64,000 nucleotides of DNA, taken from Lingula anatina (taxonomy: Eukaryota; Animalia; Brachiopoda). The translations under genes and the position numbers were made by a program. The first letter of the stretch is position 1; every line of letters begins with the position of its first letter. The notes under the pieces were generated by a model, which worked only from the letters and a program-made list of their open reading frames with translations, did no database searches and was not told where the DNA came from. Location: assembly GCA_051362555.1 (NCBI GenBank), contig JBPQGU010000016.1, forward strand, positions 2,790,001 to 2,854,000. Direction: 5' to 3'. Below, piece after piece: positions 15,492 through 62,000 of this stretch.

Positions 15492-15572
15492 TAAAATATT
15501 ATATTTAAATAAATAGGTAAAACAATAATCAATAAATAAAATTCTTTTTATTTATACTAAATAAATAAAAAG

Positions 15573-18070: not shown

Positions 18071-18130
18071 TTTTCCCTTTCTTCTTTTTTTAATTTTTTT
18101 TAATAAAAAATTTAAAACCTTAAATAAATA

Positions 18131-18167
18131 AAAAAAGAGTAAAAAAGTTAATTTTTTACTCTTTTTT
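18131..18167. terminator. Palindromic hairpin after OTC copy 1
   Basis: AAAAAAGAGTAAAAAA-GTTAA-TTTTTTACTCTTTTTT. Confidence 0.75.
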
Positions 18168-18173
18168 AAAAAA

Positions 18174-19172: not shown

Positions 19173-19181
19173 ATTGTAATA

Positions 19182-20375
19182 TTATTTCTTATCTCTAATT
19201 ATAGGCATTGTCATACATCTAGGACCGCCTCTACCTCTTGATAATTCAGATGAAGGAACTTCAATAACTTTTATTCCAGCATCTCTCATTAATTTATTAG
19301 TTACTCAGTTTCTTGAATAAGCAATAACTACACCTGGTCTAATTGTAATACAATTAGTACCATCATTTCATTGCTCTCTTCCTGCTGCAATTGGAGATTC
19401 ACCACCACATTTAATAAATACTGGTTCTTTTCCAATTAATTCTGTAAAGAATTCAATTAAACCTTCATTAATTAATGTAGCATCATCTTCTGTTACATCA
19501 TAAATTTTAAATTGATCAATATCATCAAAAATTGTTGGATGAATAACAAATTTATCATAATCAACATTTGTCATAACTGTATCTAAATGCATATATGCTC
19601 TTTTTTTAGGAACATCAATTGCATAAATTTTTTTGAAAGTTGTTTCTTCATCATTAAAAATATTTTTAGCTAAAAGTTTTACAGCTTCCATTTGTGTTCT
19701 TTCAGTTACACCAACAAGTAAAACATCATCACTTAATACCATAATGTCTCCACCTTCAATATGATATTTTTCATCTCTTGAAAAGTAGAATTTTAATCCA
19801 GTATCTTTAAATCTTGGATGATATTTTAAAAATGCTTCAGCAAACAAAGTCTCTCTTTGTCTTGTTTTATTTGCCATTGTATGTAATGTTACACCACAAC
19901 CAACTGAAGCAAATGCATCTCTTTGAAATAAAACATTTGGTAATGGATCACATGCAAATGGATAATTATCCACCATTTCCACACCAATTTCACTAGTTTC
20001 AATTCCACCAATCATAGCATTAACCATATCTTGTGTACTTAAACTTCTTAAATGACTTTCTAATGCTTTTAAATGACTAGGTTGAATGTCACCTTCTTCT
20101 AAGAATTTTTTAATAAATTCTTCTTTATAATCAGGGTTAGCATCTAATGCTTCTGCTACAAGTTTTTCAACATATAACACTTCCACCCCTTCTTTTCTCA
20201 TTGCATCTGTAAATGCATCATGTTCTTCTTGTGCTAGTTTCAAATAAGGAATATCATCAAATAACAACCTCTCTAATAAATCAGGAGTTAAGTTTTCAAC
20301 TTCTTTACCTGGTCTATGAACTAATACTGAACGTAATTTTCCAATTTCAGAAAATACATTAATAACATTTTTCAT
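19182..20375 (-). CDS. arcA: Arginine deiminase
   Basis: [36 protein letters not shown]. Confidence 0.97.
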
Positions 20376-20432
20376 ATTTTTTCTTTTTCACCTTTCCTTC
20401 TTTTTTTATATATTTTATAAATATTAATATAT

Positions 20433-20486
20433 AACTAAAAAAATTTTATCAAATTTTTAAATTATAAAATTAATATTTTAAAAAAT
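20433..20486 (-). promoter_or_regulatory. 54-bp upstream element with TATAAT, duplicated in front of arcA and OTC copy 2
   Basis: Matches 21756-21809 with one mismatch. Confidence 0.7.
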
Positions 20487-20591
20487 CTATGTCTATATTA
20501 TCTTTTTATATATTTTCCATACAAAAAAAAATTTAAAAAAAAAAAAAAAAAATAAAATAAAATAAAATAAAAAATAAAAATATTTTTTAAA

Positions 20592-20622
20592 AAAAAGAGC
20601 AAAAAAGTTTTTTGCTCTTTTA
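20592..20622. terminator. Palindromic hairpin after OTC copy 2
   Basis: AAAAGAGCAAAAAA-G-TTTTTTGCTCTTTT. Confidence 0.75.
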
Positions 20623-20646
20623 ATGTTTTTTTAAAAATAAAACAAA

Positions 20647-21645
20647 CTAATTACCAATTGTTGCAACCATTACTGCTTTAATAGTATGTAATCTATTTTC
20701 TGCTTGTTGAAAAACAAATGAATGTTTTGATCTAAATACTTTATCTGAAACTTCCATTGAAGTCAAACCAAATTTATCATAAATATCTTTACCAATTTTT
20801 GTATTAATATCATGAAAAGATGGCAAACAATGTAAGAAAATTACATCATCTTTTGCAGAATGTATTACATCCATATTAACTTGATATTCTTTTAGTGATG
20901 AAATTCTTTCTTTTCAAACTGCTTCTTTTTCTCCCATTGAAACTCAAACATCTGTATAAATAACATCAGCACATTCTGCTCCTTTAATAGGATCTGTTTC
21001 AAATGTTAATGTAGCTCCTGTTTCTTCATCTTTTATAATTTCATTACATTTATCAATTAAATCTTGATCAGGTCATAATTCTTTTGGAGCAACACATACA
21101 AAATGCATTCCCATTTTTGCACATCCTACCATTAAAGAGTTTCCCATATTATTTCTTGCATCACCAAAATATGCAAACTTAATACCTTTTAAAGTTTTTT
21201 TCTCTTCAATAATTGTTAAAAAGTCTGCTAGAATTTGTGTTGGATGAAATTCATTTGTTAAACCATTTCAAACTGGAACACCTGCATGTTCTGCAAATTC
21301 TTCAACAACTTTTTGTTCATAACCACGAAATTGTATTCCATCAAACATTCTACCTAAAACTTTTGCACTATCTTCAACAGATTCTTTTTTACCAAATTGA
21401 GATCCTGAAGGTCCTAAATAAACAGTATGTGCTCCTTGATCAAGTGCACCTACTTCAAAAGCACAACGAGTTCTAGTTGAATCTTTTTGAAATAAAAGAC
21501 AAACATTTTTACCTTTCATTTTTTGAACTTCTGTTCCAGCATATTTAGCTCTTTTTAAATCTCTTGATAAATCCAATAAATATTGGATTTCTTGATGTGT
21601 AAAATCTAATAATTTTACAAAATTTCTTGCTTTTAAATTAATCAT
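20647..21645 (-). CDS. arcB: Catabolic ornithine carbamoyltransferase, copy 2
   Basis: Same motifs as copy 1; 5' part nearly identical to copy 1 at DNA level. Confidence 0.96.
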
Positions 21646-33063: not shown

Positions 33064-35649
33064 TTAATGACCAAATATCAATTGTAAAAATTCATATTTT
33101 TCTCTAATTTTTGCTAATGCTTTTGAAGCAATTTCTGTTAATTTAACTTGTCTATCTACAATTTCAGCATCATCTTGAGTTGAAATTTGACTTAAAAGAT
33201 CATCATTATTATCATCTAAAATATTATCAATCATTGCTTTTTTTTGAACATTATTATAATATGTGGTATCCATTTTAGCTCATTCTGCAATATATTTTCA
33301 ATTAATTTTATTTATTATTGATGCATTAGTTTTAATATCAACAGGTCTATAAAGAGTGTTTGTTCATTGGTAAACTAAATTGTAAATTTTTATTGCAACT
33401 TGAAATAAATCAAAATCTTCAACTTTTTTATTTAATTCTTCATTTTCTTTAAACAATGAAATTTTTTCATCAATTTTTTCTTTTGCTTTTGTTGCTATTA
33501 ATTTTAAATTAGCTCTATCAGCATTAATAATATCAAAAATAGTAGTATCTCATGTTATTATTTGATCAATTAAAGTTTGAATTGCACCAATATAAAATGT
33601 TTCATCTTTTTTAGCTCATTTTGCAATAGATTGTCATTTAGCTTTATTAGCAACAGTTGCAGTATTTAAAGTAGATGTATCAGTAGCATCTTTTCATTGT
33701 TTAGCTAAATCTCAAGCATTTTCTAATACTTGAAAATCATCTTCTCATTTTGCATCATCACCTTTTAGTCCTTGTGGTAATATTCTATTAATTTCTAATT
33801 TAACTGTATTAATTATAGTGTTAAGGTTTATTTTTTCATCATCTTGTAAATCACCAGTTGTTTGTGAAATTAATTTATTAATAAGAACTTTTATAGAATC
33901 ATTTGTATTTGCATTAGTATATATTGATAATGTTTTTGCAAAATCACCAAATTTTTTATAATCTGCTTTGTTTGTATCAGTAATTGTAATATTTTGACTA
34001 GTATCAATTGTATTTACAAATGTTCTAAGATCTACTATTTCATTAAAATAATTTATAGCAGCTGTTTTTATTTGTTCTGGTGTAGCATCATTACCTCTTT
34101 CACCTTGAGGTAATATTCTATTAATTTCTACTTTAATTTTTTCAATTATAATGTTAAATTCCCTTTTGTTCTCAGAATTAGATAAATCTACACCATCTCC
34201 ATCTCTTAATCATTCAGAAATACTTTCTAAATTACTAATATTTTTTATTGATTGTATAGTTAATGCAAATAATCCAACTTTTTTTCATGCATTTTTATTA
34301 TATTCATTAATAACAGTATTATCATCAACAGTATTTATTAATTCTCTAATAGCAACTAAATTACTAATATATTTTAAAACTTGTTCATATACTTTATCAT
34401 CAGTTGCACCTTGTGGTAATATTTTATTAATTTCTGCTTTAACTGTATTAATTATATTTTGTACTTGTAATATTTCATTTTGAAAATTAATATCTTGACC
34501 AGTATAAAATTTATCAACTACAATTCTTGTTGAATCACTTTGTGATGCACCTGTATAAATGGATAATTTTTTAGCAAATTCAGCAAGTTTTTTAAATTCT
34601 AATTTATTTGAATTATCAATAGTAATATCTTCACCAGCATTTAATTTTGTTTGAATAGTATTTATTAATGTTTTAATACTTACTATTTCATTAAAATAAT
34701 TTATAGCAGCTGTTTTTATTTGTTCATCACTTGCAGGAACACCGTCATTACCTCTTAAACCTTGTGGTAATATTTTATTAATTTCTGTTTTAACTGTATT
34801 AATTATAGTTTGAAGATTTGTTTTTTCATCATCTGTTAAATCTCCATTTGTTTGTGCAATTAATTTATCAATAAGAACTTTTACAGTATCATTTTCATTT
34901 GCACTAGTATATATTGATAATTCTTTTGCAAACTCACCAAGTTTTTTATAATTTTCTTTATTTGTATTAGAAATTGTAATAGTTTGACTAGTATCAATTA
35001 TATTTACAAATGTTCTAAGATCTACTATTTCATTAAAATAAGCTATAGCAGCTGTTTTTATTTGTTCTACAGTTGGAGCTGGTCCTTGTTCACCTGTATC
35101 ACCTTTTTCACCTTTAGCACCTGGAGCACCATTTTGTCCTGCTGGTCCTCTAAATCTTGTTCTAGCTGCATCTGTTCCCATGTATGTTGTAACAGCTGAT
35201 TCTACTTGTGCATCAGTTGCATCTTGACCAGCATCACCTGTATCACCTTTTTCACCTTTAGCGCCTGCTGGTCCTGTTGCACCTCTTGGTCCTGTTGGTC
35301 CTCTATCACCTGTGTCACCTTTAACACCTTGGGGTCCTGCTGGTCCTCTATCACCTGTGTCACCTTTAGGTCCTTGTGGTCCTGGTTCACCTTTTGGTCC
35401 TTGTGGTCCAACTTTAGAAGCAGCTTCTTCTATATTTTTTACTGTTTCTTTTGTTGAAGTTTTTGATTCTTCTAAAGATGATATTGATTCTTCTTTTTCT
35501 ACTTTTGATTTATATGAATTATTTACTGATACAACTCCAATCATACCAACTGTTGTACCAATAGCTACAACACCTAAAACTAATAATCCTTTTTCAAATA
35601 TAGATGAAGTTTTAATTTCATCTTTTAATTCACTTAAATATCTTTTCAT
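33064..35649 (-). CDS. Large membrane-anchored collagen-like surface protein with about 105-aa helical repeats
   Basis: N-terminal TM; Gly-X-Y blocks of 21 and 8 triplets; repeats EQIKTAAI...EINKILPQG; 861 aa with TGA=Trp; AGGAG RBS. Confidence 0.9.
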
Positions 35650-36723
35650 TTTTCTCCTTTTTTTTAATTTTTTTAATTTTTTTAATTTTTTTATTTAAAT
35701 ATAATTTCTATATATTTTATATAAATTATTTGTATTTATTTTAATAATTTTTTATATTAGTATTTTAAATATTATTAATAAATACAAATTATTGATATAA
35801 AAAATAAGTATTTATAATTACATATTTACCAAAACTATAATTAATTCATAAATATGACTTATATAAATCAATTATATTTATGATATTTTCATTATCAATA
35901 ATAGAAAATGTATAAGATAATAATTCATCAAATTTATCAATAATATTTTTTATATTTTGATAAAAATTATATAAAGTATATATTTTTGATTCTTTTAATA
36001 ATTTAACAAAAAATATTTAAAACTTTCTTTATTATTTTAATTAATTACAATTGCTTGATTATTATTTATTTTTATTTCAATATCTTTTATTAAAGAAAAT
36101 AAATTTTTGATTTATATTTCAAATAGTTTGTTTATTTGAACTTGTTGTTGTATTTTTCATTATTATTGTTGTTATTTTTGTATTTCTATTTTTCTATGTA
36201 TTAAAACAACTTGTATTTTTTTATTCTAACCCTTTTGTTTTTGTTAATTTTTATTGTATTTTTAATTTTTCTTTTTATTTATATATACTAATAGATCTTA
36301 ATAAATATGTTTTAACTTTATTGATTTATATTTTCTAGATATATTTTTTTAAAACAAACTATATCTTAAAAAATATTAAATTTATAAATTATACTTTTTA
36401 AATATGTATTTATATTTTAAATTTATATATTTTTAATAATTTTACATATTTAATAATTTTTTTAAATTTATCTTTATTTGAATTATAAAAAACAAATAAA
36501 AATAAATTATCATTTTAAAAAATGTTTTAATTAAATTATTGTAATATATTAAAATAAATAAAAAAATTTCTATTTATTAAAATATAAAAATAATAAAAAT
36601 ATATTATTAAATTTATTATATTATTTATAAATAATTTTTTTTTAACTTATAAATTAAATAATTAAATATAATTTAAATATATAAAAAACAATATATTTTT
36701 AAATTTAATTTTAATATTTTTAA

Positions 36724-36761
36724 ACAAAAAATCTAAGTAATTTTTACTTAGATTTTTTGTT
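36724..36761. terminator. Terminator after the short collagen-like gene
   Basis: ACAAAAAATCTAAGTAA...TTACTTAGATTTTTTGT. Confidence 0.85.
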
Positions 36762-36792
36762 TTTATAATCAATTATTAATTAAAAAAATTAA

Positions 36793-37743
36793 TTATGGTG
36801 TACGTACAAAATTAGCTACTGTTGTTTGAAGAGAAGTAACTGTTCTGTCAAGATCTGTAACTGTACTTTCAAGACGGTTAATTGTATTTTGTTGATTGCT
36901 AACTGTATTTTTAAGAGTATTTATTTCAGTATTTAAGTTTTCTATTTGTGTTCTCAGTTCTGGAACAGTAACATCTAAAGCTGTTGTTTGTGCTGGTGTT
37001 AAAGTTGCATCAGCACCTGCTGGTCCTGTTGCACCTCTTGGTCCTGCTGGTCCTCTATCACCTGTGTCACCTGTGTCACCTTTGTTTCCTTGTGGTCCTG
37101 CGGGTCCTGCGGGTCCTTGAGGTCCTCTTGGTCCTTCTGGTCCTTGTGGTCCTCTTTCACCTCTTTGTCCTTCTTCTCCAGCAAATCCTCGAATACCTTG
37201 TTCACCTCTGTCACCTTTAGCACCTTTAGGTCCTGCTGGTCCTCTTTCACCTTGGATGCCTTGTGCACCTCTTTCACCTTGTAAACCTGTTGGCCCTCTT
37301 AAACCTTGGATACCTTGTGCACCTCTTTCACCCTGTTGTCCTTTTTGTCCTACTGGTCCTCTTTCACCTGGATCACCTTTAGGTCCTTGTGGTCCTACTG
37401 GTCCTCTTTCACCTCTTGGTCCGGGTGGTCCATGTGGTCCTTCTGGTCCAGTATCACCTTTTTCGCCTTTGTCACCTTTTTCACCTTTAGGACCTTGTTG
37501 TCGATCTTTAGAAGCAGCTTCTTCTATATTTTTTACTGTTTCTTTTGTTGAAATTTTTGATTCTTCTAAAGATGATATTGATTCTTCTTTTTCTGTTTTT
37601 GATTTTTCAGAATTATTTACTGATACAACACCAATCATAGCAGCTGTTGTACCAATAGCAACAACACCTAAAACTAACAACCCTTTTTGTAGTAAAGAAG
37701 CTGTTTTAATTTCATCTTTTAATTCTTTAAAATAATTATTCAT
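36793..37743 (-). CDS. Membrane-anchored collagen-like protein with a C-terminal coiled coil
   Basis: N-terminal TM; 54 uninterrupted Gly-X-Y triplets; heptad-rich tail. Confidence 0.92.
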
Positions 37744-46093: not shown

Positions 46094-47296
46094 TTAAATA
46101 AAATTCAATACTTCTCTTAAAATCATTTCTTCTTCATCTGTTTTAATTATTAAAATTTGAATTTTTGATTCTGGTTTTGTTAAATAAAAATAATTACTTT
46201 TACTATCTTTTTTTAACATAATTCAATTTTTATTTAAATCAAAATTTAAAAGAAAAAGTCTTTTTAAAATACTTTTAACTATATAAGAACTGTTTTGTCC
46301 TATTCCTCCAGTAAAAACTAAATATTTTAATTTACCTTCTAAATCATTTGTATATTGAACAATATAATTTGCAACTGCTTTTGAATATAAATCTAATGAT
46401 AATTTTGCTCTTTTATTTCCATTATTTGAAGCTTTTTCAATATCTCTAATATCTGATGAAATACCTGAAACAGCTAATAATCCTGATTTATTATTTAAAA
46501 TTTTTAATATATCATCTAAACTTAAATTTGTTTTAGAATTAATATATTTAAATATCATTGGATCAACTTTGCCACAACGTGTTGACATAATAAATCCAGA
46601 AATTGCACTAAAATCAAATGTATTATTTACACTTATACTATCTTTTATTTCTGAAATACTTGAACCATTTCCTAAATGACAAACAATAGCATTAATTTTT
46701 TCACTTTTACATTTTGAAATATTTTTTAATTCATTTAAAACATATTGATAACTTATTCCATGAAAACCATATTTTTGAACTCCATATTCTTCATATCATT
46801 TTCATGGTAATGGTAAAACTTTATTAATTAATGGTATATTTTTATGAAATGATGTATCAAAAACTAAAATATTTTTTATATTTTTTATATTTTTTTTTGT
46901 AGCTTTTAATACTTTTAAACTAGCATCTATATGTAATGGTGCTAATGGAATTAATTTTTTTAAATCACAAATAATTTGTTCATTTAATAAACAAGAATCT
47001 AAATATTTTCTTCCTCCATGAACAATTCTGTGTCCTACTGCTTTAATATCATTAAATTTTTTTATAATTTTATTTTCTTTTAATAAAGTAAAAAGAAAAT
47101 TAATTGCAATTTCATGATTATAAAACTTTTTATAAATTATTTTTTTTGTATTTTTAAAATAAAAAATACAATTACCATCAATACCTATTTTTTCTAAAAG
47201 TCCATTACAAACAACATAAAATTTATCATCTTTTAGATGATAAAGTTTAAATTTTATTGAACTTGAACCTGCATTTAAAATTAAAATTAATTTCAT
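46094..47296 (-). CDS. ackA: Acetate kinase
   Basis: NAGSSS, GHRIVHGG, FDTSFH, YGFHG, HLGNG, TRCG, FTGGIG, TDEE. Confidence 0.95.
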
Positions 47297-47319
47297 TTTT
47301 CTTACTCCACATATTAAAA

Positions 47320-48027
47320 TTATTGATAAATATCTAATATATTTTTATTTAAAAATATATTAATAAAAACTTTATATACAACAAATGTATTAAAAAATAA
47401 AAATGGAATAGATTTTAATCTTACTAAAATTTGTTGTAAAAAGTCAAGGTTTAATTTGATTTTTAACTCTAATGGTGTTATTAATAAATAAAAAAAATAA
47501 TTTAAAAAAAATAAAGAAAAAATTATAAAAAATATTAAAAAATTATAATTTTTTAAATAAATAAAAAAAATATAAAAAAATATAAAAAATAACAAATAAA
47601 TCATTGAAATAAAAATAAAAATATAATTAAAATTTGAAATTATAAAATTATTTTTTTTATAAAAATAATTTATAAAAAATAATATAGATAAAAATATTAA
47701 AAGATAAACTAATATATAAAAAATAACAAATAAAAATTTTTTAATATTTTTTTTATAATAAATAAAACATTTAAATAAACAACCAATTAAAATCATAAAT
47801 AATCTTTGAAAAACAATTATTGAAATACCCAATCCACGTCATCAAAAACTAATATCAACAACTATTCCAACTAATAAACCATAAAATGGACCTAATAAAA
47901 AACCAGATATAAAAAATAATATATTTTCAACTTTAAAATAAATCAAAACATGTATTAAAACAATAAAAAAAGAAGACAAAATAATTTTCTTTAATTTTTT
48001 GTTAATAAAAAATCTATAATTTAGCAT
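47320..48027 (-). CDS. Membrane protein resembling an ECF transporter S component
   Basis: ISGFLLGPFYGLLVGIVVDI fits the S-component G-x-x-x-GP-x-x-G...D pattern; about 6 TM. Confidence 0.65.
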
Positions 48028-48033
48028 AAAAAT

Positions 48034-48708
48034 TTAAAGTTTTATTAAAAGAAAAATGAACAAAAATACTAACAAAGAAATCATAAACACTTTTGATAGA
48101 ATTTTTAATTTTGCTTCTTTTAAATTTACCTCATAATCAATAAATGGTTTTGGATTAATATTTTTTTTAATAATTTTATTAATACTTTTTTTAAAAACTA
48201 AATCTAACAAATTACAAATATTAAAGTCATTTAATATATTTTTTTTACAATATTTAATTTTTAATTCATCTGCAAATTCTAAAATAGAAATTGCAGATGA
48301 ACTTGAAAATGCTAATCTTAAAAGAAAAAAAGAATCTATTAATTTAAAATTAAAAATTTTTATTTTATAAAACTTACATTTTTTATATAAAAAATTATAA
48401 AAAAATCTAATTTGATTTCCTATAATTAAATAATCTTTACAAAAATTTAAAATAAAATTATAAGCATTTTTAAAATCTAATTCTTGAGATTTTTCAATAT
48501 TAAAAATACCTTGTTTTTTATATTCTGTTACATCATAAGAGTTTTCTAATTTAAAATCTATTTTTTTATAAATAATTTCATTATTATTTATTTTTTTAAA
48601 ATATATTCTATAAATTTCTGAACTAGATAAAACTCTAAAATCAACTATAATATATTTTTTAATGTTTTTTTCTTGTTTTATTTTATTTAAAATTTTTAAA
48701 TAATTCAT
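48034..48708 (-). CDS. Degenerate DEDDh/DnaQ-like exonuclease-fold protein with a C-terminal TM
   Basis: YIIVDFR, IIGNQIRFFYNFL and KLIDSF echo the Exo motifs, but most catalytic residues are missing. Confidence 0.55.
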   Translation of the reverse strand: MNYLKILNKIKQEKNIKKYIIVDFRVLSSSEIYRIYFKKINNNEIIYKKIDFKLENSYDVTEYKKQGIFNIEKSQELDFKNAYNFILNFCKDYLIIGNQIRFFYNFLYKKCKFYKIKIFNFKLIDSFFLLRLAFSSSSAISILEFADELKIKYCKKNILNDFNICNLLDLVFKKSINKIIKKNINPKPFIDYEVNLKEAKLKILSKVFMISLLVFLFIFLLIKL

Positions 48709-48731
48709 ATCATTTAAATTAAAAAATAAAT

Positions 48732-50510
48732 TTAATTACTTAATTTTTTTACAATATCAATCAAAATATCTTGCATTGTATTTTTGTATTTTAAAAGATC
48801 TTTTGCATATTTTTTTCAAGATGTAAAAAATGCAATAATTTTATTTTCTTTTATTGAATATGCAATTGTAAATCCATCATTTTGAACAGGTCAAAATACA
48901 AATGATGTAAGTGTTTTATAACTCATATTTGAAGTTGACATTCTTTGTTTTGTAAAAAGTTTATAAAAATCTGTATCTATAATTGGTAAAACATTATGAT
49001 CATTATTTTTAAATTCTTTATTTTGTAACTTTAAAGCTAATAAATGTCTTTCAATACCACTTCCATTTTTACAATCTAAAACTTTTTTATAATGACTATT
49101 TTCAACATCTTTTAAATATTTTAAAATTTCATCTTTATTTTTAAATTTAATATTAAAATATTTATTATAAAACTTTATTATTGCATTTGATAATGGTCTT
49201 AAACATTCAGTTCTACCCATAAAAAATTTTCTTAAATCAACTGATTCATATGTTGAATAAAAATTATTAAATACTTTTTTTTGTGCTAATTGACCACATA
49301 ATTGAAAAAAACCATCTATAGATTTAATACCAATTTTTTTTAATTTATCTTTTCCAAAATCAATAATAAAATGTTCAAAAGCACATTCATTACATTTTTT
49401 TTTATAATTGATAAAATGTTTTTCTAATATTTTTTCTTCTTCTTTTAATAATTTAAAATCTAATAATTTAAAATCTAATAATTTATCATTTTTTGAATTA
49501 TTTTTTAAATTATTTAACATTGTATCCATATAATTTAACAAATATAAAAGTGTTCCACCATCAAAATATGTATGTTCCATAGTAATTGGACAATGTATTG
49601 TATTGTTTATACCAATATTTAAAGATTTGGAAAATCATCTATTCAAATTATTTTTTGAATCACCATTATAAGTTTTTTTAACTGCATCAAATTCATTTTC
49701 AACCTTTTGTGTATCAAAACAAAAAACAAAAATAGATTCTTTTAATTTTTTAATTAATTCAAAATTTCTTTTAAATATTTTTCTTTGTAATAAATAATCT
49801 TTTTTTCTATTTTTAGATAATTCAATATAATTTAATTTTGTTATATTTTTATCTTTAAAATTTTTAATTATTTCTCTTATTGTTTTTTCAATTGATTTTA
49901 TTGAACTTACTTTGTTATTTTTAATAATTTCTAAATTATAAAAAGCATTTTTATATGCAAAAATAATATTTGTTGATAAATCATCATTAATAATATATTT
50001 ATCAATTTTTTTTCCCATTATTCTATAACTTGCAAGCAATCCATGTAATTGATCTAATGAAATTTTATTATTTTTAATTTCAAAAAATTCAAATTTTTTA
50101 GGATTTTTTTTAAAATCTAAATAAAATTTTGAAATTGATCAAATAATAAAAGCAGATTTTTCAAAAATATCCATATTCTTTATTTTTTCATTACCTCAAC
50201 ATATTCCAGCACCAACAGATAAAACAGAATCATTAATATTTAAATACAAATCTCATCAATAATTTATTAAATAACTACTATTTTTATTTTCAAATTTTTT
50301 TAATAAATATTTTTGTGATTTTTTTATATAAGAAGAGTTCTTAAATTTTAATATTTCAGATTCTAAAATTTTTAAATCCAAATTATTTACTTTAAAAAAT
50401 GGAGTTAATCATTCTAATACTCTTTTAGATGTAACATCTAATGTTGGAACAGGTAAATTAGGTATTTTATTTTTATTTAATATTTTTTTTGAATATAAAA
50501 TGTTTGACAT
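48732..50510 (-). CDS. Choline/carnitine O-acyltransferase family protein, carnitine-type signature
   Basis: LPNLPVPTL, catalytic EHTYFDG, TYESVDLRKFFMGRTE, GIERHL, MSTSN; 592 aa. Confidence 0.93.
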
Positions 50511-50514
50511 AATA

Positions 50515-51495
50515 TTAATCAAATGTTTGGCTTAAAGTTATCAATGCAGTATTGAAAACCTCATCTTCATTTGCTCCTCTTGAAAGATCATTTACTGGTA
50601 AATTTAAACCATAAAGTATTGGTCCTATTGATTTACAATTACAAAAATGTTGTGCAATTTTATATCCAATATTTGCAGAATTTAAATCTGGAAATATAAA
50701 AATATTAGCAGATTTTTTAAATGTTTCTATATTATTAAATTTTTTATTTCTAATATTTTCATCAAATGCTGCATCAAATTGTATTTCACCTATAATTTTT
50801 ACATTCAAATCATTTATTTTATTTTTTAAAATTTCTGTTGCATCTTTAACTTTTTTTGTATGTTCATTTAATCCACCACTTCAATTTGTAGAAAAAGATA
50901 ACATTGCAACTTTTTTTTCATCATTATTAATTTTTTTTGAAAAATTAATTGTATTCATTGCAATATCTGCTAATTGTTTTGAATTTGGTTCAATATTTAA
51001 TGCACAATCTGCAAAAAAATAAACATTTTCATCTTTTATCATTATCATAGTACTACTTGAAAAATCAATATTTTCTTTAGTTTTAATAATTTTAAATGCT
51101 GGTATTAAAATATCTTTTGTAGAATAATTAATACCACCTAACAAACAATCTGCATATCCTTTTTTAAGTAAAATCATTGAAAAATAATTTGTTTTTCTTA
51201 CTAATTCTTTTATAATTTTTTTAGATATTTTATTTTTTGTATAAGAAATTAGTAATTCTTCCATTTCTTCAAATTCTTTCAATAAAATATTATTTAATAC
51301 AATTTTTTCAATATCTTTATTTAAATTATTAGGAATTTCATTTTCATTTTCAAAAACTAAAATACATTTTGATAAATTTAAATTTGTAATTCTATTTGCA
51401 ACATTTTGAATAATAATATTTTTTCCTTCTGGAAATAAAATCTTTTTTTTCTTATTTTCTTTTATTTTTTTAATAATTTTTTCAATAAAGTCCAT
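50515..51495 (-). CDS. pta: Phosphate acetyltransferase
   Basis: LFPEG, FADCALN, GEIQFDAA, FPDLNSANIGYK, PVNDLSRG; AAGGAG RBS. Confidence 0.96.
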
Positions 51496-51537
51496 TGTTT
51501 GACTCCTTTATTAAATTCTTTTTAATTTTTAATTAAA

Positions 51538-53694
51538 TTAAAATTTTTTTAAATATTCTTTATAATTAACAAGCTTACAAATAATTTTTTTAGAATCTGT
51601 TTTTTCATAATATAAAACAAGTTTTTTTGATTTTGCTAATTTTAAAGCTTCTTCTTTACTCATTTTTCCTAAAAACTTACCTTTTTCATCAATTACTTCA
51701 AAAGTAGAAAATGGTATATCATCATTAAACATTTTTATAATTTTACTTTTTTTATATTTATGTTTTAAATAAAATAATAAAATTGATAAAAATATTAATT
51801 TTACAATTAATATTCAAGCAAAAATAAGTTCTAAATCAGTTTTTATTTTTTTAGATGTAATATATTTTTCACCCACTTTACCTCAATAAATACCTTCACT
51901 AAAAGTACCTTTAAATATTAAAATTAAAAATATTATTGTTATTAAAATTCATAAAGAAATAAATACAAATTTATATTTTAAATGTTTTGAATTTTTACTT
52001 TCAAAAACATATTCTTTTTTCTTAATATTATTTTTTATATTTAAAAAATTATCTTTATTAAAATCTTTTCTATTTTGAATAATAGATTTAAACATTGCAA
52101 TTATTTGTAAATAAATAATCAACAAATATGGTGCACCCATAAATACTGCAAAATCTCTAATTGCTATCATAATCTTTGAACTATCACCACCAATTAATTT
52201 ATATGCAATTGCTAATAATGTAATTGAAATACCTCATATAAAAATTGAAATTCTTCATGGTTTTTCTTCACCTTTTTTTGAAACAATTGATGCAACAGAA
52301 ATTGAAGCTGATGTTCCAGTTGTAGCAACAAAAGTTACAAAAACAATTAATGAAATAACAGATAAAATTTTAAAAAATGGAAACTTAGATAATAATTTAA
52401 AAAATGCACCATTTACTGAATAAGTTTTAGCAACAATATTATAAACATCTGAATCACCATTAAATAAATTAAAAAATGAAAAACCACCAAAAACACTAAA
52501 TCATAAAGCCATAAATACTGCAGGAACAATTACACTTGCAAGACAAAATTGTCTAAAAGTTCTACCCTTTGAAATACGTGCTAAAAACACACCCATAAAT
52601 GGTGTTCATGATATTCATCATAAAATATATGCACTTGGTCAATCATTCAATCACTTTGATCATGATGTATCTAATGGATAAGAATTAAAATGTCTTGTAA
52701 TTGAACTTGGTAAGCTTCCAATTGATTCAATAGATTGATTAATAAAAAACTTTGTTGGTCCTACTAAAAAAATAAATGCAAAAATAACTAATGCAATATA
52801 TATTGTAATATTTCCTAATTTTGCCATCCCTTTCTTTAATGGAGTTATACTTGCAATTATAAAAACAAATGCAATTATAGCAATAAATATTAAAGAAGTT
52901 GCTTTAATTCATTTTGGATCAATTTTTCCATCAAAAAATGCAATACTTAATGATTCTGTCATATTTCCACCAGCAATTGCAACTGATGCTGCAACTGTAA
53001 AAACTGCTGTTATACCAGCTAAACAATTTGCAAATATTCCAATATATCTAAATATTTTAGATTTTCCAAATCCTTTTTCTATAACAGAACCAGGTTGAAA
53101 TGTTGCATTATATTTTTTGTTAAAAACAAATCAAGCAATTACTAATCCAGAAATAGTATATATGCACATTGCAGGTATACCTCAATCTCAAACTGAAAGA
53201 GAAATTGATTCTTTTATTGCATTACTAGCATTACTAATTTGATCAGAATTTAATCCACTTATTCCACTTTTTATTACTGGTGCTAATTTTTCTTTTAATG
53301 GTGAAAATTCAACATGAAATATTGGTTCTGCAACACCAAATGTTAAAGTACCAACACCAACACCAGCTGTAAACAACATAGTTAATCAAGTAAATGTTGA
53401 ATATTCTGGTTTTGTATCACCAATTCGTTTACTTCCATATTTAGTGAAAATAAAAAAACAAATAATTATCAAAAATATAAATGGTGTAATTAAAAAAAAT
53501 CAAGTAAATTTCTCAGATACAAATGTTTTACTTTTACTAATAGTTTTTGCAAATGTATCTGGAATACTAATTGCAATAGCAGATAAAAGTAAAATAAAAA
53601 ATGAAGATATAAAAAATCCTCAACTATTATTTTTTAAAAAAAGAGAAATACTTTTTTTATTTTTAATACTATTTATTATTAAAAATTTTTTCAT
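51538..53694 (-). CDS. BCCT-family (betaine/carnitine/choline) transporter fused to two extra TMs and a C-terminal IF3-N-like domain
   Basis: [46 protein letters not shown]; no TAA/TAG in frame between 52170 and 51540; 718 aa. Confidence 0.9.
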
Positions 53695-53728: not shown

Positions 53729-53763
53729 TTTTTTTTTTTTTCAAGTACTTTTTTAAAAAAATA
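53729..53763 (-). promoter_or_regulatory. Upstream element (AAGTACTTG + poly-A) shared with the pyrG upstream region
   Basis: Matches 61965-62000; the A tract is 18 nt here and 13 nt there. Confidence 0.55.
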
Positions 53764-53880: not shown

Positions 53881-55557
53881 CTAAAAAATACTTATTTTTG
53901 AATCTGGATTTGAAATATTTATTAAAGCACCAAATACAATTAAAACTAAACATATAATAAATAATATAATTAATAATTTATAAATTGATTTTAAAAATTT
54001 AACATAACTTATTTTACAAAATGATGTTGAAACCATTACTGCAGCATATGTTGGAGCAAATAAATTTCCTAAACCAATTCCCATTGTATATGCAGTTATT
54101 GAACCTGCTAAACAATGATTTTGAGTTATTCCTTCTGCTTTTTCAATTTCATAAATTGAAGGACCTAAAAGTGGAAAAATAGCTTTTGCTAATCCAGATG
54201 TAGATGGAATAAGTAATGAAACTGGAATTGTAAGTATATATATCAAAATTGGAACTGTAAATCTTTTATCACCAGAGCTTTTTTTTACATTATCAATAAT
54301 TCCATTAATAAACAAATATTTTAAATTTGTTGCTTCAAACAAAACAGAAATACCACTTGCAAATCCAATACATAAAACAGCTGGAATCATTTTCTTACAA
54401 CCAGTTGTAAAGTTTTCTACAACATCATCTCAAGAAAATCTTGCAATTTTTGCAATAATTACAGTACAAAACAAAAATCAAACTGATAATGCAGTTAAAT
54501 TTCAAGAACCAAATTGAAATTTTGAACCATTTTTCATTCTTGAATTTACACCAGAATTGTTAAATCAAGAAGTTGATGGATTATTATTAAAAGTAACATT
54601 TTCAACAGTTTGAAATGTATTAGTTTGTGCAATCTTATCATATGGAATAACTAAAAATAACATTAAAACAAATGAAAAAATAAAAACTAGTGTTATTATT
54701 AAATTTCTTTTTATATTACCACTTACCTTTTCCATAGATTCAACATCAAATTCACTTTTATAATATTCAAATTTATCTTTAAAATATGAATTTGATTTAT
54801 TTTTTTTAACTCTATATGAATAAATCATTACACATAAACATGCAGTAATAAACATAACAATTCATATAACTCATCTTCAAGCCATACCATCAGATATTGA
54901 GATATTTTCTTTTAAATTTGAATAACTTTCAATAGATGAATTTGATATATCAGTTGCAATTATTGTTGCAAATGGATTTACTGTTGAACCAATAACACCA
55001 GAACCAGCACCAATAAAAACAACTAAAAATGAACTTCAAATATCAAAACCGGCTGCTAAAAATACTGGAACAACAAATGCATACAATGGTAATGAAGATG
55101 TTCCCATACCATTAAATGTTCCATTTAAACTTAAAAACAACATAATTGGTATAACAACTCATGTTGTTTTAAACATATTTTTACATTCTATTCATATTTT
55201 TTTTATAAAATTTGTTTCAAAATTTCTTTCTATTTCTAAATTAAATTTAATTTTTTTTAGAAAATTTAAAACAATTGAATTCATTGCTTTTGTTTTTATT
55301 GTTACAAACATAAATGAACCAAAAATAAACAAAAAAACAGAAATACCTACTGAATTATAAAGACCAACTGGAATTGTTGATATCCATTGTAAAATACCAG
55401 CACCATAAATATTTATTTTTTCATTTTTTTCATTTGTGGTTGTTACATTTTGTCAAGATAATATTAAACTTAAAATACCAAAAAAACAAATTCCAATAAA
55501 CAATAATATTAATGTATTTGGTAGTTTAAACCTTCTTTTTTTTAATAAACTTTTCAT
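53881..55557 (-). CDS. YfcC/ArcD-family transporter, second paralogue
   Basis: FKLPNTL start, AGSGVIGSTVNPF, IPSTSGLA; AAAGGAG RBS. Confidence 0.9.
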
Positions 55558-55587: not shown

Positions 55588-55619
55588 AAAAGAGCAAAAA
55601 AATATTTTTTTGCTCTTTT
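55588..55619. terminator. Palindromic hairpin between gatB and the YfcC paralogue
   Basis: AAAAGAGCAAAAAAA-TA-TTTTTTTGCTCTTTT. Confidence 0.75.
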
Positions 55620-55675
55620 CTTTATTAAAATATTTTAATTTTTAATATATTTTAATTTTTAATATATTTTATTTT

Positions 55676-56566
55676 TTAATATATTTTATTTTTTTTAATA
55701 AATTTTTTATTATTATAAACTATTTCTTCAGGAATTTCAATTGGTAAAATATTTGTTTCAGGAATAAAATAATAATCTTCTTCAACATTTTTTTTTGTTA
55801 AAATAATTATTTTTTTTGATTTTTGATCATATTTTTTAATTATTAAAAGATTAAAAATTCCTCTTTTTAAATATTCTTTTTGATCTTCATATTCTAAATT
55901 AATAAAATGTAAAATATCTTCTATTTTATTTAAATGTTTAATATAAATAGTATTTTTTGATTTTAAATCATTTGTAAAAAAATCTAATTTTATTGAAATT
56001 TTTATATTTTTATCTAAAAAATCAGATTTAATAATTTTAGCTTTTTTTAATTTTAAAATAAAATCATTTAAAAAATATTTAATATCAATTGGATAATCAA
56101 AATCTGATTTTGTAACTATTTTAATTATTGCAATACCTGATCTATTATAATCAACATACAAACTATCATCCAAAAATTTAGAATCTGCAACATCTTCTTC
56201 TAAAACAATTGAATCAATATTTATTTCTTTTTCTTCTTTATTTTCTTTTAAAAATTTAAAATTACCACCAATTGCAAATGGTTTCAAATATTGTGTAATT
56301 TTAAAACCTTTTGGTAAATCATGATAAAAATAATTTTTTCTATCAAAATATAATTTTTTACTAATTTTTGAATTTAATAAAAGTGCTAATCTAACTGCTA
56401 ATTCAACAGCTTTTTTATTTAAAGTTGGCATTGAACCTGGTATTCCAATGTCATCAATACTTACATTTTCATTATATTTTGAATTAATGTTATTTTTTGA
56501 TGTTGAAAATAATTTTGTTTTAACATCCATTTGTATATTTAATTTTAATCCGATTTTAACTTTCAT
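55676..56566 (-). CDS. gatB: Truncated, degenerate GatB (N-terminal domain only)
   Basis: FDRKNYFYHDLPKG, LEED and DYNRSG recognisable; 296 aa; GLEVH replaced by GLKLN. Confidence 0.85.
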   Translation of the reverse strand: MKVKIGLKLNIQMDVKTKLFSTSKNNINSKYNENVSIDDIGIPGSMPTLNKKAVELAVRLALLLNSKISKKLYFDRKNYFYHDLPKGFKITQYLKPFAIGGNFKFLKENKEEKEINIDSIVLEEDVADSKFLDDSLYVDYNRSGIAIIKIVTKSDFDYPIDIKYFLNDFILKLKKAKIIKSDFLDKNIKISIKLDFFTNDLKSKNTIYIKHLNKIEDILHFINLEYEDQKEYLKRGIFNLLIIKKYDQKSKKIIILTKKNVEEDYYFIPETNILPIEIPEEIVYNNKKFIKKNKIY

Positions 56567-58025
56567 TATGTTTTACTACCTTTTTCATTTTTTCAATAAT
56601 TGTTGCAAATTTTAATAATTTATAATCATCTCTTACTTTTGACATTATATTTAATGAATACTTCTCTTTGTTTTCATCATAAAATGGAACTACAATAGAT
56701 GGATTTCCTAAAAAATTAGCTATAAGTAATAATTCATTCATTGATAAACCAGATAATTCTGGATTATTTTTAGATTTTTTAATATCTTCTATTGTTGAAG
56801 CTAATCCAAAAGTTGCAGGTGTAATTATAAAATCATATTCTTTAAATTTTTTTTCAAAAAAATCATTAATATATTTTCTTAATTTTTGACCTTTTACATA
56901 GTAACTTTCATTATCTTTATCAAATTCTAAAAAGAATGATCCTAAAGTTCATCTTCTTTTTACCTCGCTTCTTAAAGAATTAGTTCTATTTATAATTATT
57001 TGTTCTTCATATGTTTTTTTTAAATTTAAAGTTTCATTTGGTAAAGAACCAAAATGAATACCTGTTAAATCTGCTTGACTACTAATAGCTTCAGGATAAC
57101 TTACCATTTGATAAGTTAAAGACAAAGATTCTAGTATTTTGTCTTCTATTAAAAATTTTTCAATTTCATAATCTTTATTCTTTTTTAAATCATTAATAAA
57201 ATCTTGAAAAATTTTATTCATTTTTTTTGAAACCATTTTGTCATCATTAAAAAATCCAATTTTTAATTTCTTTTTTAATGGTACATCTAATGATTCAAAT
57301 TTTGGTGGTAATTGTGATGTTAGATCAAATTTATCTTCTTTAAAAATAATTTTACATATATTAAATAAATCTTTACAATTAGTTGTTAAAATACCAACTG
57401 TATCTAATGATGGTGAATATGGTATTAAACCTCTTCTTGAAATTAAACCATATGTTGGTTTAAAACCAACAACACCTAAATAAATTGCTGGACATCTTGC
57501 TGAATCTCCTGTATCACTTCCTAATGAAAATACACAAAAATCATTAATATATGCTAAATATTGTAAAACTGCTGCACCTGTTGAAGAACCACCAACCATC
57601 CTTTTTGGATCAATTGGATTTATAACTGGTACATCATTTTCAATACCTGTTCCACCCAATGCTAGTTCATCCATTCTTGTTATTCCAGTAAGTATTGCAC
57701 CATTATCTTTTAAAATTTTGACAACATATGCATCCATTTTAGGTTGGAAATCTTTTAAAATTTTTGAACCTGCTTCTATTTTTAAATCCTTATCTGAAAT
57801 TCAATAATTATCTTTAACAAAAAATGGAACTCCAAATAATTCTTTATCTTTATATTTTTCTATAAACTCTTTATCATTTAATAATTTATAAATTTTTTTA
57901 AATCTTAAACTAGTAAAAAAATTAAATTCTTTATTACAATTTAATAATTTTTCAAATTTTTTGTAATAAAGAATTAGATCTTTTATATTATTTTTATATT
58001 TTTTTTTAAATTCATTAATATTCAT
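56556..58025 (-). CDS. gatA: Amidase-signature protein GatA
   Basis: VKDN, MDELALGG, GGSSTG, GSDTGDSAR, GFKPTYGLISR. Confidence 0.92.
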
Positions 58026-58028
58026 AAT

Positions 58029-58328
58029 TTACTCTATTTTGTTTGAAATTAAATATAAATTCCGATTGAATCTATTATTTTTAATCAAATCTTTATTTTT
58101 ACCCACTATATCTTTAACTTCAATATCATCTTGACGTAAACCAATTACATTTTTTAAATTTAAATATCTTAATGGTTCAATATTATTGAAATCAAATTTT
58201 TTTAAAACATTTAAACGTTTAAAAACAATGTTTTCAAACTCTTTTTTTAACAAATGAATTTGTTTATCATTTAATCTAATTCTTACTTTATGTGCAAGTT
58301 TTTTTATTTTTTCTTCAGAAATAAACAT
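58029..58328 (-). CDS. gatC: GatC-like subunit
   Basis: MFISEEKIKKLAHKVRIRL...LRQD; directly upstream of gatA. Confidence 0.8.
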   Translation of the reverse strand: MFISEEKIKKLAHKVRIRLNDKQIHLLKKEFENIVFKRLNVLKKFDFNNIEPLRYLNLKNVIGLRQDDIEVKDIVGKNKDLIKNNRFNRNLYLISNKIE

Positions 58329-58446
58329 AATAAAAATAATGGGGGGGGATTTCATAAAATAATAAAGAAGAAATGGTATAAAATGTTGTACCCCCCACAT
58401 TTTTTTTACTCCTAAAAACAAATTTAATACCTAATAAATTATTTAA

Positions 58447-58575
58447 TTATTTTGCTTCTTCAATACCAAATTTATCTTCTTTACTTTTTGAGAAAAATTC
58501 AAAAAAAACAAATCCAAAAAATATTATAAAAAAGAAAGAAATTAATACAATTGCAAATATTGTTCCTATTTCCAT
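58447..58575 (-). CDS. 42-aa single-TM protein, probable MetS-like small subunit of the NSS transporter
   Basis: GGAG RBS; MEIGTIFAIVLISFFFIIFFGFVFFEFFSKSKEDKFGIEEAK*; 25 bp after the NSS stop. Confidence 0.7.
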   Translation of the reverse strand: MEIGTIFAIVLISFFFIIFFGFVFFEFFSKSKEDKFGIEEAK

Positions 58576-58600
58576 AATTTAAACTCCATAAACTTTCTTA

Positions 58601-60277
58601 TTATTCTTCGATATTTTCAATATGATATTTCTTTTTATATCAAAGAATTGAAACTGTTCAAACAATAATTGGTATTCAAAACATCAATGTTAAAACTACT
58701 CATTGAGTTGTTGAAACTTCAGATAATTTGCTACCATTATATTCAGAAATTGTTGAATATAAACTTGAACAACATACAAACAAAATTGCAAAAAATGAAC
58801 AAACTATCAAACCATAAAACAAATTCTTATTTCATTTAATTTTTGCTTTCTTGTTGTTAAATTCTATAATTTCATTACATGATTTTCTGTTTGTTGCAAA
58901 CATAAGCGCTTGTTGTAATGATAAAAATAGTAGTAATCACATCATTCATCCATCAATTGTTAAGGTATACATTGCATCAACATTTGAATTAAATACAAAA
59001 AATATACCAAAGAAGAATTGAATTAAAATTGTAACTAATGATCCATATTTTCTTTGCATTCCAGTGTTTTCATATAAAACACTTGTTCCTGTTTCAACCT
59101 CTCCAATTAATGATGATAAACCAGCAAAAACTGCTGATAAAAAGAAAAATGCACCTAAAATGTTTCCTATAATTTTAACATTCATTCTTTCACCAATTCC
59201 TTTAAAGAAAACAGGAAAAGTTTTAAAAATTAGTTTTGAACCACCAATATCTTTGTCATATATTTTTCCATCTGTTTCAAATATTGCAAAACTTTTTCAA
59301 TCTTCTACTACTCTTGAAACACCACTTTCAAATACATCATTTTCATTATGTGTTTTTAAAACAGTACCAAGTTTATATTCTTTTTCACCAATTTGCAAAC
59401 CACTTTTCATCATTCCTCCAATTGTTGCAGCAATAATGAAACCACCTAATAATGCAATTAATGTGTCACCACAAACAATTATAAATGCTTGTGTTGTGTT
59501 ATCTCTTTCTTTGGGAGCTTTTGATGAATAAATCATAATAATAGCTGAAACCAAAGATAAAGAAAATATTGATTTTCCAAATGCAGAACCTCAAGCTTTA
59601 AAATCACTTAATTTTGTTAAATCTGGTTTAAAAACTGCTTCAATTCCTAAATCATATCCATCAATTGTAAATGAATATACAAAAAAAGCAATTAATAATA
59701 AAAACAGAATAGGAATCATAATTTTACATGCTAATTCAACACCTTTTTTAATTCCTCTGTTAACAATTATTCATAATGATACAAAAACAACAAGAACAAC
59801 AAATAATGTTCAAAAAGATGCACCACCATGTGACATGTTTGTTGGATCCACATTTTTTATTTCTTTTCCTGTTATATTTAAAACATTTTGATCCATAAAT
59901 TTAAAATTATTACCAAATTCTGATGAAAATGAACTAAAAAACATTATTAATATTCAAGCTACAACTCAAACATAATATGTACCAATAATAAATTGACCTA
60001 TTGCTTGCACTAAACCAAATGCAGGTCCTGTTCTTTTTCAATATTTTTTATATGCAATTACTGGAGAAGTTCTCCATTTATTTCCAAGTGTTGATTCCAA
60101 TACAAAAAATGGAATACCTAACACAAATAAAGAAATAACATATGGTATTAAAAATGCCACCCCACCATATGAAATTAATGATGTAGGAAATAATCATAAA
60201 TTCCCTAAACCTACAGCAGAACCAAGTGTTGCAAGTATAAAACCAACATTAGAAAAATTTTTGGATTTACTTTTCAT
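58601..60277 (-). CDS. NSS/SNF-family sodium-dependent transporter 2
   Basis: GFILATLGSAVGLGNLWLFP...GGVAFLIPY; FAGLSS. Confidence 0.93.
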
Positions 60278-60300
60278 TTTTTTTATAAATTCTCTCTTTC

Positions 60301-61869
60301 TTACTTAGTTTTGATTTCTCAAACTTTTTTTACAAAATAATCAAAAACCGGATGTGAATTATCTAATTTTGTACTCAATTCTGGATGAAATTGTAAACCT
60401 AAAAAGAATGGATGTTTTTTTAATTCAAAACATAATGGTATACCTTCTGAATCGTTTGAAACACCAGACAAAATTAAATTATCATCTCTATCTTCTAAAA
60501 CTTTTTTAAATTTGTTTTGAAATATAAATGAATGTCTTCTTCTTTCATATATACAATTTAAATCACAAAATTTTTTCTTATAAATTTCTTCAATTAATGA
60601 ACCTTTTTTAGGTTTTACTTTTATTTCACCAAGTGAAATGTTTTTATATTCATTTAAATAATCAATTATTAAAACATCATCACAACATTTTGAAATTTCT
60701 GAAGTGTTAGCTTGTATATTCAAAACATTTCTGAAATACTCAATAGTTAAAATTTGCATACCATAACATATTGATAAAAATGGAATATTGTTTTCACGTG
60801 CATATTTTGTAATTAACATCTTTCCATCAAATCCAATATCACCAAATCCACCTGGTGAAAGTATTCCATCATATTTTTTCAAAAATGCATAATCTTTTGT
60901 TTTTTCAAATTCTTGTGGTAAATAATTTAATGTATTAACTTTAATACCATGTTTAAGTCCACTTTGTTTTAATGAAAAAATAATTGAATAATAAGCATTT
61001 TTATTATTAGCTGCATCTTGATCAACAATTAAAAAGTTTAATGATTTTTTACTTTTATTCATTAATTTATATTTTTCTTTATAATCATCAATTAAAGTTT
61101 TATCAAGATGTTCTTTTAAATCAAATTTTTGTAAAACTAATTCAAAAATTTTATAATCTAAAAGTTTTTGTACAATTTCAAAATCAAAATAAACATTTTC
61201 TAAACAAAAAGTTTTACTATTTTCAAAAACTTTAATATCTTTGCATTTTGGTTCATCTGATCTTAAAATGCATAAATCCATTTTTATCTTTTTTGAATTA
61301 AAAAAATTAATTGCTTTCTTTTCTTTTACAATTGATTCTTCATCACCTTTTAAAACTAAACAATTTAATGTTTCAAAATTATTTTTAAATTTCTTTAAAA
61401 TTTCAACAAAAATATCATATGATGGATTTTCAACATTACCACCTAATTCTATAATTGTAATTTCTGGTTGAATTTTATTTATTAAAAATTCAATTTTATA
61501 TTTAAATTTATTAAATACTTCATTTACAAAATCAATTTTTATACCTTTAAATTTATTTTTATTTTCCATCTTAGCAATGTCTTTTAAAACTAAACCTAAA
61601 GTTATAGATTGTTTTGAAGATTGATTTTGATTTAAAAATCTTTCATAATGTGCAATATCAAAATCAACTTCCTTACCATCTTGTGTTACAAAAACTTCTC
61701 CATTCTCTGAAGGATCAATAAATTTTGAAGAAATATTTAAATAATAATCCAACTTCAAAATTAATGGTTTTAAATTATTTTTTTTAAATAAATAACCAAA
61801 AGATGAAGCAATTAAAGATTTACCAATATCTGAAAATTCTCCACCTAAAACAAATAAAATTTTTCTCAT
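60301..61869 (-). CDS. pyrG: CTP synthase homologue with an eroded synthetase domain and an intact class I GATase domain
   Basis: GEVFVTQDG...HYERF; PGGFG, ICYGMQ, QFHPE. Confidence 0.88.
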
Positions 61870-61964
61870 TTCTCAACTCCTATTAAATTTCTTATTTAAA
61901 ATTTTTTTATTTTTTTTCATAGTGGCAACTTATTTAATACTTTTCAATTTTCTTATCCACCATA

Positions 61965-62000
61965 TTTTTTTTTTTTTCAAGTACTTTTTTAAAAAAATAA
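61965..62000 (-). promoter_or_regulatory. Second copy of the AAGTACTTG/poly-A upstream element
   Basis: Matches 53729-53763. Confidence 0.55.

Follow-up and report, generated by a model that had tools for sequence, protein, structure and literature searches.

A likely duplicate of GatCAB with a truncated GatB and a remodelled CTP synthase variant encoded together in mollicute-like DNA of a Lingula anatina assembly

We analysed a 64,000-nucleotide stretch of the Lingula anatina assembly GCA_051362555.1 (contig JBPQGU010000016.1, positions 2,790,001 to 2,854,000; hereafter the window), in which variants of two glutamine amidotransferases, the CTP synthase PyrG and the three-subunit GatCAB, are encoded together. 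On the minus strand the order is pyrG, a symporter gene, a 42-residue open reading frame (ORF), gatC, gatA, gatB, a tandem repeat, a hairpin and yfcC. The PyrG variant (60301..61869, 522 residues in code 4) has the amidoligase and class-I glutaminase architecture; its glutaminase triad C368-H495-E497 and ATP/Mg phosphoryl-transfer core are intact, and its pocket for the ribose and triphosphate of UTP appears rebuilt. The amino-acid symporter of the NSS (SNF) family (58601..60277, 558 residues) carries a Glu in transmembrane segment 8 (TM8) where the family orthologues have Leu. GatC (58029..58328, 99 residues) matches TIGR00135 at E 1.3e-7 and 31.8 bits, below the cut-off of 47.1, and all three GatCAB subunits, although present, fall below their TIGR cut-offs (TIGR00132/00133/00135). 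GatA (56556..58025, 489 residues) retains the Ser-cisSer-Lys triad K71/S147/S175, and GatB (55676..56566, 296 residues) consists of the cradle domain, with most ATP/Mg ligands gone and neither the helical domain nor the YqeY tail. An earlier note, made from the letters of the window, had described the amidotransferases without gatC and the 42-residue ORF. The latter (58447..58575, minus strand), 3' of the symporter gene, encodes a hydrophobic membrane protein with no NCBIfam match, possibly a small transporter subunit.

The GC content of the window is about 20%. Read in code 4, ORFs of at least 100 residues cover 88% of it, whereas table 11 gives 45%; TGG codons are rare, and code 4 is the genetic code of the organism. 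When RplB was compared with 398 scored Mycoplasmatales genomes, the top four belonged to one five-member GTDB family (66–68% identity), the fifth member ranking eighth, and the window GatA fell inside a 12-row clade with members of this family (support 100/99). Judged by such single-protein trees, the organism is probably an Oceanoplasmataceae-like marine mollicute with a tiny genome, and the five genomes of this GTDB family serve as the relatives in the counts below. None of six window proteins was found in a collection of 15 billion sequences. Scans of genome contigs gave no close locus with GatA (0/130 stretches) or with the GatB pair (33 loci, none above 44%), and a scan of metagenome contigs with the PyrG pair gave at least 31 loci, with full-length matches at 27–31% and no close locus among the matches listed. 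From about 6% of one RNA run, 6 partial reads fell on the locus, which has no bearing on expression.

The GatB changes reported in the earlier note were all confirmed: GLKLN, AIIKIV, KISIKLD in place of RxDxNxS, and a length of 296 residues. The protein contains PF02934, with neither PF02637 nor a YqeY domain, and a tblastn search of the window found no remnant of the tail. The gene ends at about S. aureus residue 295, the boundary at which the helical and tail domains begin. A misread TGA as the stop was ruled out, the codon being TAA. Across 254 full-length homologues, 47 positions are conserved to at least 90%; the window GatB retains 31 of these, compared with 44–47 in P0007 and five family proteins. 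P0007, the top match of the window GatB, is its nearest relative (51% identity, 468 residues). The lost positions are E8, H10, Q89, L147, E149, G186, R189, D191, N193, S195, E208, N211 and four more. The available text of PMC4027206 lists seven ATP/Mg ligands for yeast GatB; mapped by motif, five of them are lost here. One of three Mg ligands is retained (N10, E123 and K149 for the equivalents of His12, Glu124 and Glu150), as is one of four ATP-binding residues (K8, T152, K193 and D195 for yeast E34, T189, N230 and S232). Deletion of the helical and YqeY domains abolishes tRNA binding and transamidation, and yeast GatFAB without them, according to the same text, crystallised as a trimer devoid of transamidase activity. 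Because most Mg ligands and ATP-binding residues and the whole tRNA-binding tail are gone, transamidation is predicted to be absent, and the window GatB is, by its sequence, dead as a transamidase. In a quick tree its terminal branch measures 0.97 against 0.24 for its sister; the corresponding GatA branches are 0.42 and 0.30.

GatA itself is normal in sequence. The Lys/Ser/Ser amidase motifs are intact, as had been claimed, and 73 of 87 invariant positions are retained, compared with 68–80 in relatives; GatB, with 31 of 47, and GatA differ in retention at Fisher p 0.03. A working GatCAB should be essential in this group, because the family has AsnRS in 5/5 genomes, GlnRS above the cut-off in 0/5, and one gatA and one gatB in each. 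We compared contigs from three other studies (X2, X4 and X5) over 55740-61940, with 329 further records beyond those listed. All three hold a second gatAB sequence, 85–90% identical to the window copy, with about 11% DNA divergence. The paired sequences occur at depths of 54/65 (605 bp) and 51/58 (261 bp; 2 versus 35 differences) in X2, 4.7/4.5 in X4 and 111/100 (150 bp; 5 versus 16 differences) in X5, whereas the stretch from the 5' part of gatA to pyrG (pyrG-NSS-gatC) is covered by a single contig both in X2 (depth 53) and in X5 (depth 131). By this pattern gatAB appears doubled and its neighbours single. P0007/P0401 were considered as the second copy and ruled out, as the second gatAB is nearer to the window copy (over one segment, 25 changes were observed against a required minimum of 46). 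The window gatCAB is thus likely a duplicate. As for canonical copies elsewhere, which the earlier note had raised, a second gatAB was seen, and from the need for it we infer that it is canonical and would supply Gln-tRNA(Gln).

The PyrG variant presents a different picture. The motifs reported for it are present (PGGFG at 339, ICYGMQ at 367 with C368, QFHPE at 493, ENGE at 55, ELGGNVENPS at 141, and no KTKP), but the GKS described as remaining is itself altered from GKG. Among general PyrG matches, K[TS]KP and [QE]HGE occur in 119/119 and GD[IM]E in 100/119. The PF06418 N-domain scores 146 bits against 232–427 for full-length matches in 121/149 Mycoplasmatales genomes, a comparison by one model of the window protein with a six-frame search of genomes, and its divergence goes beyond drift. 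The whole protein reaches 325 bits with NF003792 (cut-off 308) and 315 with TIGR00337 (cut-off 463). The glutaminase site is complete (C368, H495, E497, GGFG, Q372, E391). One close relative, P0127 (51% identity), likewise has ENGE and LDYYL and likewise lacks KTKPTQ and GDIE. The window protein (P0001) and P0127 reach 60% identity in residues 1-145 and 58% in the glutaminase domain, with 32% in residues 146-272 between them. Some relaxation of residues 1-145 is likely, because family pairs conserve this segment above the glutaminase domain. Of 60 invariant positions in the synthetase domain, P0001 and P0127 retain 33 and 36 (family 38–52), and of 52 in the glutaminase domain 37 and 34 (family 23–42).

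In the available text of PMC8325340, the catalytic residues are K18, K40, D72, E140 and G143, and Asp40 (E. coli D42) contacts uracil; all of these (E. coli numbering K18/K40/D72/E140/G143 and D42) are retained in P0001 and P0127; the retained K17, K39, D41, D71, E141, G144 and R203 match the catalytic, uracil-binding and ATP-binding residues given there. The predicted model folds as a CTP synthase (pLDDT 78.5, below 50 for residues 44-68; TM 0.76–0.85 to solved CTP synthases). In a quick tree the stem to the P0001/P0127 pair measures 1.52 and the tips 0.5 and 0.72, which reads as a burst followed by conservation. A one-clade test (p-AU 0.014) left out P0155, which lies inside the family clade, and is thus not the intended test; the eight-row PyrG set with P0155 had support 99. 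Between X2 and the window, pyrG has 1 non-synonymous and 6 synonymous differences, with 19 of the 22 contig differences listed (p 3e-4, worst case 6e-3). Among the family genomes, 5/5 carry upp and cmk, 2/5 a deoxynucleoside-kinase match over the cut-off and 0/5 a uridine kinase match; without the last, CTP supply likely still needs PyrG. The suggestion that the PyrG N-domain is a dead scaffold is not supported by these comparisons: it retains the catalytic residues together with the Asp that binds uracil, and residues 1-145 are as conserved as the glutaminase domain. PyrG appears remodelled, not dead, and likely still aminates a pyrimidine. In 4/5 relatives pyrG lies directly upstream of rpoB; no pyrG remnant was found beside rpoB in the window, and an old, diverged second pyrG may exist elsewhere in the genome. 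As a separate observation, in the PyrG of family member G019 (C2:84264-88922, 1498-3159, minus strand) the glutaminase Cys is gone and KARAAS stands in place of KTKPTQ, in an open frame. This PyrG is possibly an ammonia-dependent CTP synthase, and a warning that PyrG erosion is common in the family.

We tentatively favour, at a little under an even chance, the reading that a duplicated GatCAB has become a tRNA-independent glutaminase and that PyrG has acquired a rebuilt nucleotide pocket. GatC, GatA and the window GatB would split glutamine without tRNA and release ammonia, GatB acting as a scaffold that, with GatC, would keep GatA folded and active. With ATP and glutamine, PyrG would act either on UTP, free of feedback by CTP, or on a uracil compound that has no triphosphate, such as UMP, UDP, uridine or uracil itself, and the NSS protein would import the amide substrate. 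The ammonia might serve pH or ion-gradient energetics, as proposed, in the available parts of the sources, for the family through the arginine pathway (PMC11535214; preprint 10.64898/2026.08.10.742674) and for Ureaplasma through urease (PMC3017870). The fuller form of this idea, in which the duplicated GatCAB, the first natural one uncoupled from tRNA and with a kinase-dead, tail-less GatB as scaffold, is an ammonia generator feeding Ureaplasma-like chemiosmosis from imported glutamine and PyrG aminates uracil, uridine or UMP rather than UTP, we regard as rather doubtful.

Several observations weigh against a maintained GatCAB glutaminase and a working PyrG. The listed gatB differences in X5 (19 of about 60) comprise 15 non-synonymous changes, 13 of them in codons 147-241, and 4 synonymous ones, a non-synonymous share close to the 0.81 expected under neutrality; the window lineage has lost the further GatB invariants L147 and N211, both retained in X5; and gatC has 3 non-synonymous and 0 synonymous differences in X2. 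Contig depth is not copy number, the second gatAB is known from partial alignments, and the gatB stop codon is known from the window's assembly, the other contigs having been compared from 55740 on. At a position that presumably binds the glutamine amino group, GatA has Glu (MNELL) and P0401, like most aligned relatives, Asp; gene conversion from the second copy could also have preserved GatA. Mischarged tRNA and ATP normally enhance glutamine hydrolysis by GatCAB (available text of PMC2330236), and in S. aureus the tunnel is shut unless tRNA is present, so that GatA in the window may be slow. The pyrG-gat cluster occurs in strains X2 and X5 and in 0/5 relatives, in which gatAB lies elsewhere; among the best 120 matches each, GatA found nothing on P0127's contig and PyrG nothing on P0007's. 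Six of the seven pyrG strain differences fall in the glutaminase domain and one in the synthetase domain, so that the test leaves the latter untouched. In E. coli, K187A is reported to abolish CTP synthesis. P0001 and P0127 have lost the UTP ribose contacts D147/E149 and the triphosphate contacts K187-T188-K189, H57 and T144 (see also the available text of PMC10182726).

Much of this would be expected if the gatCAB duplicate were a functionless spare in slow decay, PyrG an ordinary divergent CTP synthase and their co-location a result of genome shuffling, an explanation that we consider unlikely but that fares best among the alternatives. Besides the near-neutral gatB differences and the ongoing loss of invariants, many GatB losses lead to A/T-rich codons in a gene of 16% GC, PyrG erodes independently in the family (G019), P0001 stays above the NF003792 cut-off, and yfcC-argS-pyrG adjacency is already seen in 2/5 relatives. 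Decay accounts less well for the pattern within GatB, where residues 18-144 have lost 1 of 24 invariant positions and residues 147-257 have lost 13 of 17, a split chosen post hoc, and where a boundary-free runs test also finds clustering (p 0.003). The losses concentrate in active-site strands, and the retained blocks presumably face GatA, as in the S. aureus structure. No stop has arisen on a four-fold longer branch, the chance of which over 100–186 neutral amino-acid changes is 1e-3 to 1e-9, and the own-copy gatB records of X2 and X5 have no gap. GatB is also cut at a domain boundary, and GatA stays at family-level conservation despite about 11% DNA divergence. The claim that GatCAB is not simply a pseudogene therefore stands, given an open GatB frame, an intact GatA and a second gatAB sequence, and the pattern of losses in an open frame fits a scaffold role.

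The earlier note proposed a module for the uptake and hydrolysis of glutamine or amides, with the dead domains kept as scaffolds. In the version weighed here, both enzymes would be pure glutaminases within one such module, the NSS protein would import, YfcC would exchange, and the N-domain of PyrG would serve solely as a scaffold or as a sensor of ATP. Both glutaminase sites are indeed intact, the UTP ribose and triphosphate contacts are all lost in two PyrG lineages, PyrG function is losable (28/149 Mycoplasmatales genomes show no pyrG), and ammonia energetics has been proposed for the family. From pyrG to gatB all genes point the same way; no terminator-like site was found in the gaps between them, and two weak hairpins lie inside pyrG and gatA. 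The symporter does lie between pyrG and the gat genes and yfcC does follow, but a bidirectional terminator-like hairpin (55588..55619; 6 such sites in the region versus 0.9 expected; a sub-threshold Rfam match) separates the latter. This second YfcC/ArcD-like antiporter (53881..55557, minus strand), of a basic amino-acid antiporter family, shares 34% identity with the one encoded in the arginine deiminase cluster (16244-18070); relatives have a single yfcC. The NSS protein belongs to an orthologous type found throughout the family, and in relatives its orthologues are encoded beside other amino-acid genes. Its pocket is polar and acidic relative to MhsT and the family orthologues, and its TM8 Glu presumably matches the MhsT Leu position (LeuT I359); such a residue would suit an amide or a basic amino acid and, by this analogy, arginine equally well. 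The PyrG catalytic Lys, Asp and Glu and the uracil Asp are kept over about 49% divergence, unlike the GatB site, and with uridine kinase in 0/5 relatives there is no obvious other CTP route. The cluster was seen in strains of this species and in 0/5 family genomes, remodelled PyrG is older than the cluster (P0127), and yfcC-argS-pyrG adjacency is already present in 2/5 family genomes. We therefore hold the double-glutaminase proposal to be somewhat less probable again. It is improbable that the second gatAB comes from a co-resident relative, or that the gatB end was mis-joined at the repeat and a sole copy works with a tail from elsewhere: the second sequence is indeed seen as partial alignments, a 17-bp tandem repeat of 4.6 copies (55616..55694) overlaps the stop codon and the stop lies outside the independent contigs, but both versions occur at like depth in three studies with single neighbours, the catalytic losses (residues 8-257) do not depend on how the gene ends, the hairpin follows directly after that end, and P0007/P0401 are further from the window copy than the second sequence is.

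On the available sequences, the window GatCAB and PyrG are best described as variants of known enzymes. Bacterial GatCAB (S. aureus 2DF4, A. aeolicus 3H0L) shares the gatC-gatA-gatB order, the GatA triad and the GatB cradle with FDRKNYFY, PG..P and Y..IPE, whereas the window GatB lacks the equivalents of E10, H12, E150, R190, D192, N194, S196 and E210 and the helical/YqeY tail, and is likely a second copy. The engineered yeast GatFAB-deltaHY (PDB 4N0H; available text of PMC4027206) has GatB cut at a like domain boundary, is trimeric and lacks transamidation, but the truncation in the window is natural and the kinase site is lost too. CTP synthase (PF06418 plus PF00117; NF003792) shares the two-domain fold, the glutaminase triad, the phosphoryl-transfer residues and the uracil Asp, whereas the window PyrG has no KTKPTQ, Asn for H57, ENPS for GDIE and a shorter GGTMRLG loop, the loop change being family-wide. 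Ureaplasma urease and the Oceanoplasmataceae arginine deiminase likewise release ammonia from a host-derived amide or amidine in a non-fermentative mollicute, and the window holds arcA, two arcB and an ArcD-like gene; the candidate here differs in being a recycled housekeeping amidotransferase, and its coupling to ATP synthase is putative. The glutamine-dependent acid resistance of E. coli, YbaS-GadC, follows the same logic of glutaminase plus transporter with unrelated enzyme and transporter families. No precedent for such GatCAB or PyrG variants was found by title or abstract opening, a search outside which most subscription papers and supplements lay.

If the tentatively favoured reading is true, an essential translation enzyme has been duplicated and recycled as a catabolic amidase in a minimal-genome family with one copy per relative. 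A CTP synthase variant whose substrate lies below the triphosphate level would provide a new path to cytosine nucleotides. Such proteins would offer natural uncoupled variants for studying how the acceptor site gates glutamine hydrolysis in GatCAB and CTP synthase, and how CTP synthase chooses its substrate. If decay is right instead, the locus would be a clear snapshot of the domain-wise erosion of a duplicate.

Other features of the window may be recorded. A motif, AAAAGTACTTGAAAA, followed by a poly-A tract lies upstream of pyrG (61974..61988, minus strand), with an exact second copy at 53738-53752 (minus strand) upstream of the BCCT gene and its run. Matches with at most one mismatch number 4 versus 0.19 expected, and the poly-A tracts after the two exact copies differ in length; together, motif and tract look like a shared promoter with a slippage-prone spacer. 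Upstream of gatC (58329-58413, minus strand), AGGAG and an in-frame ATG at 58400 could extend GatC by 24 hydrophobic residues. The same interval holds G and C tracts able to pair, although the hairpin folds no better than shuffles (z -0.47), and differs in strain X5 by a deletion of 3 bases and an insertion of 9. In the arginine deiminase cluster (16244-21645, minus strand), two arcB paralogues flank arcA; the cluster also holds the ArcD/YfcC gene, with no arcC among the ORFs listed there. A tRNA-like stretch at 15550-15640 (minus strand), uncalled by ARAGORN, lies between tRNA-Pro and tRNA-Ala. Two related ORFs of 861 and 316 residues with alike N-termini (33064-37743, minus strand) have Gly-Pro-rich repeats in opposite-strand frames, which suggests collagen-like surface proteins. 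The run at 46094-53694 (minus strand) comprises BCCT, pta, a choline/carnitine acyltransferase (PF00755) and an ackA-like gene, a possible route from acetylcarnitine or acetylcholine through acetyl-CoA to ATP; the BCCT transporter itself (51538-53694, minus strand) carries an odd fusion, its C-terminal stretch matching the N-terminal domain of IF-3 (PF05198, E 5e-11).

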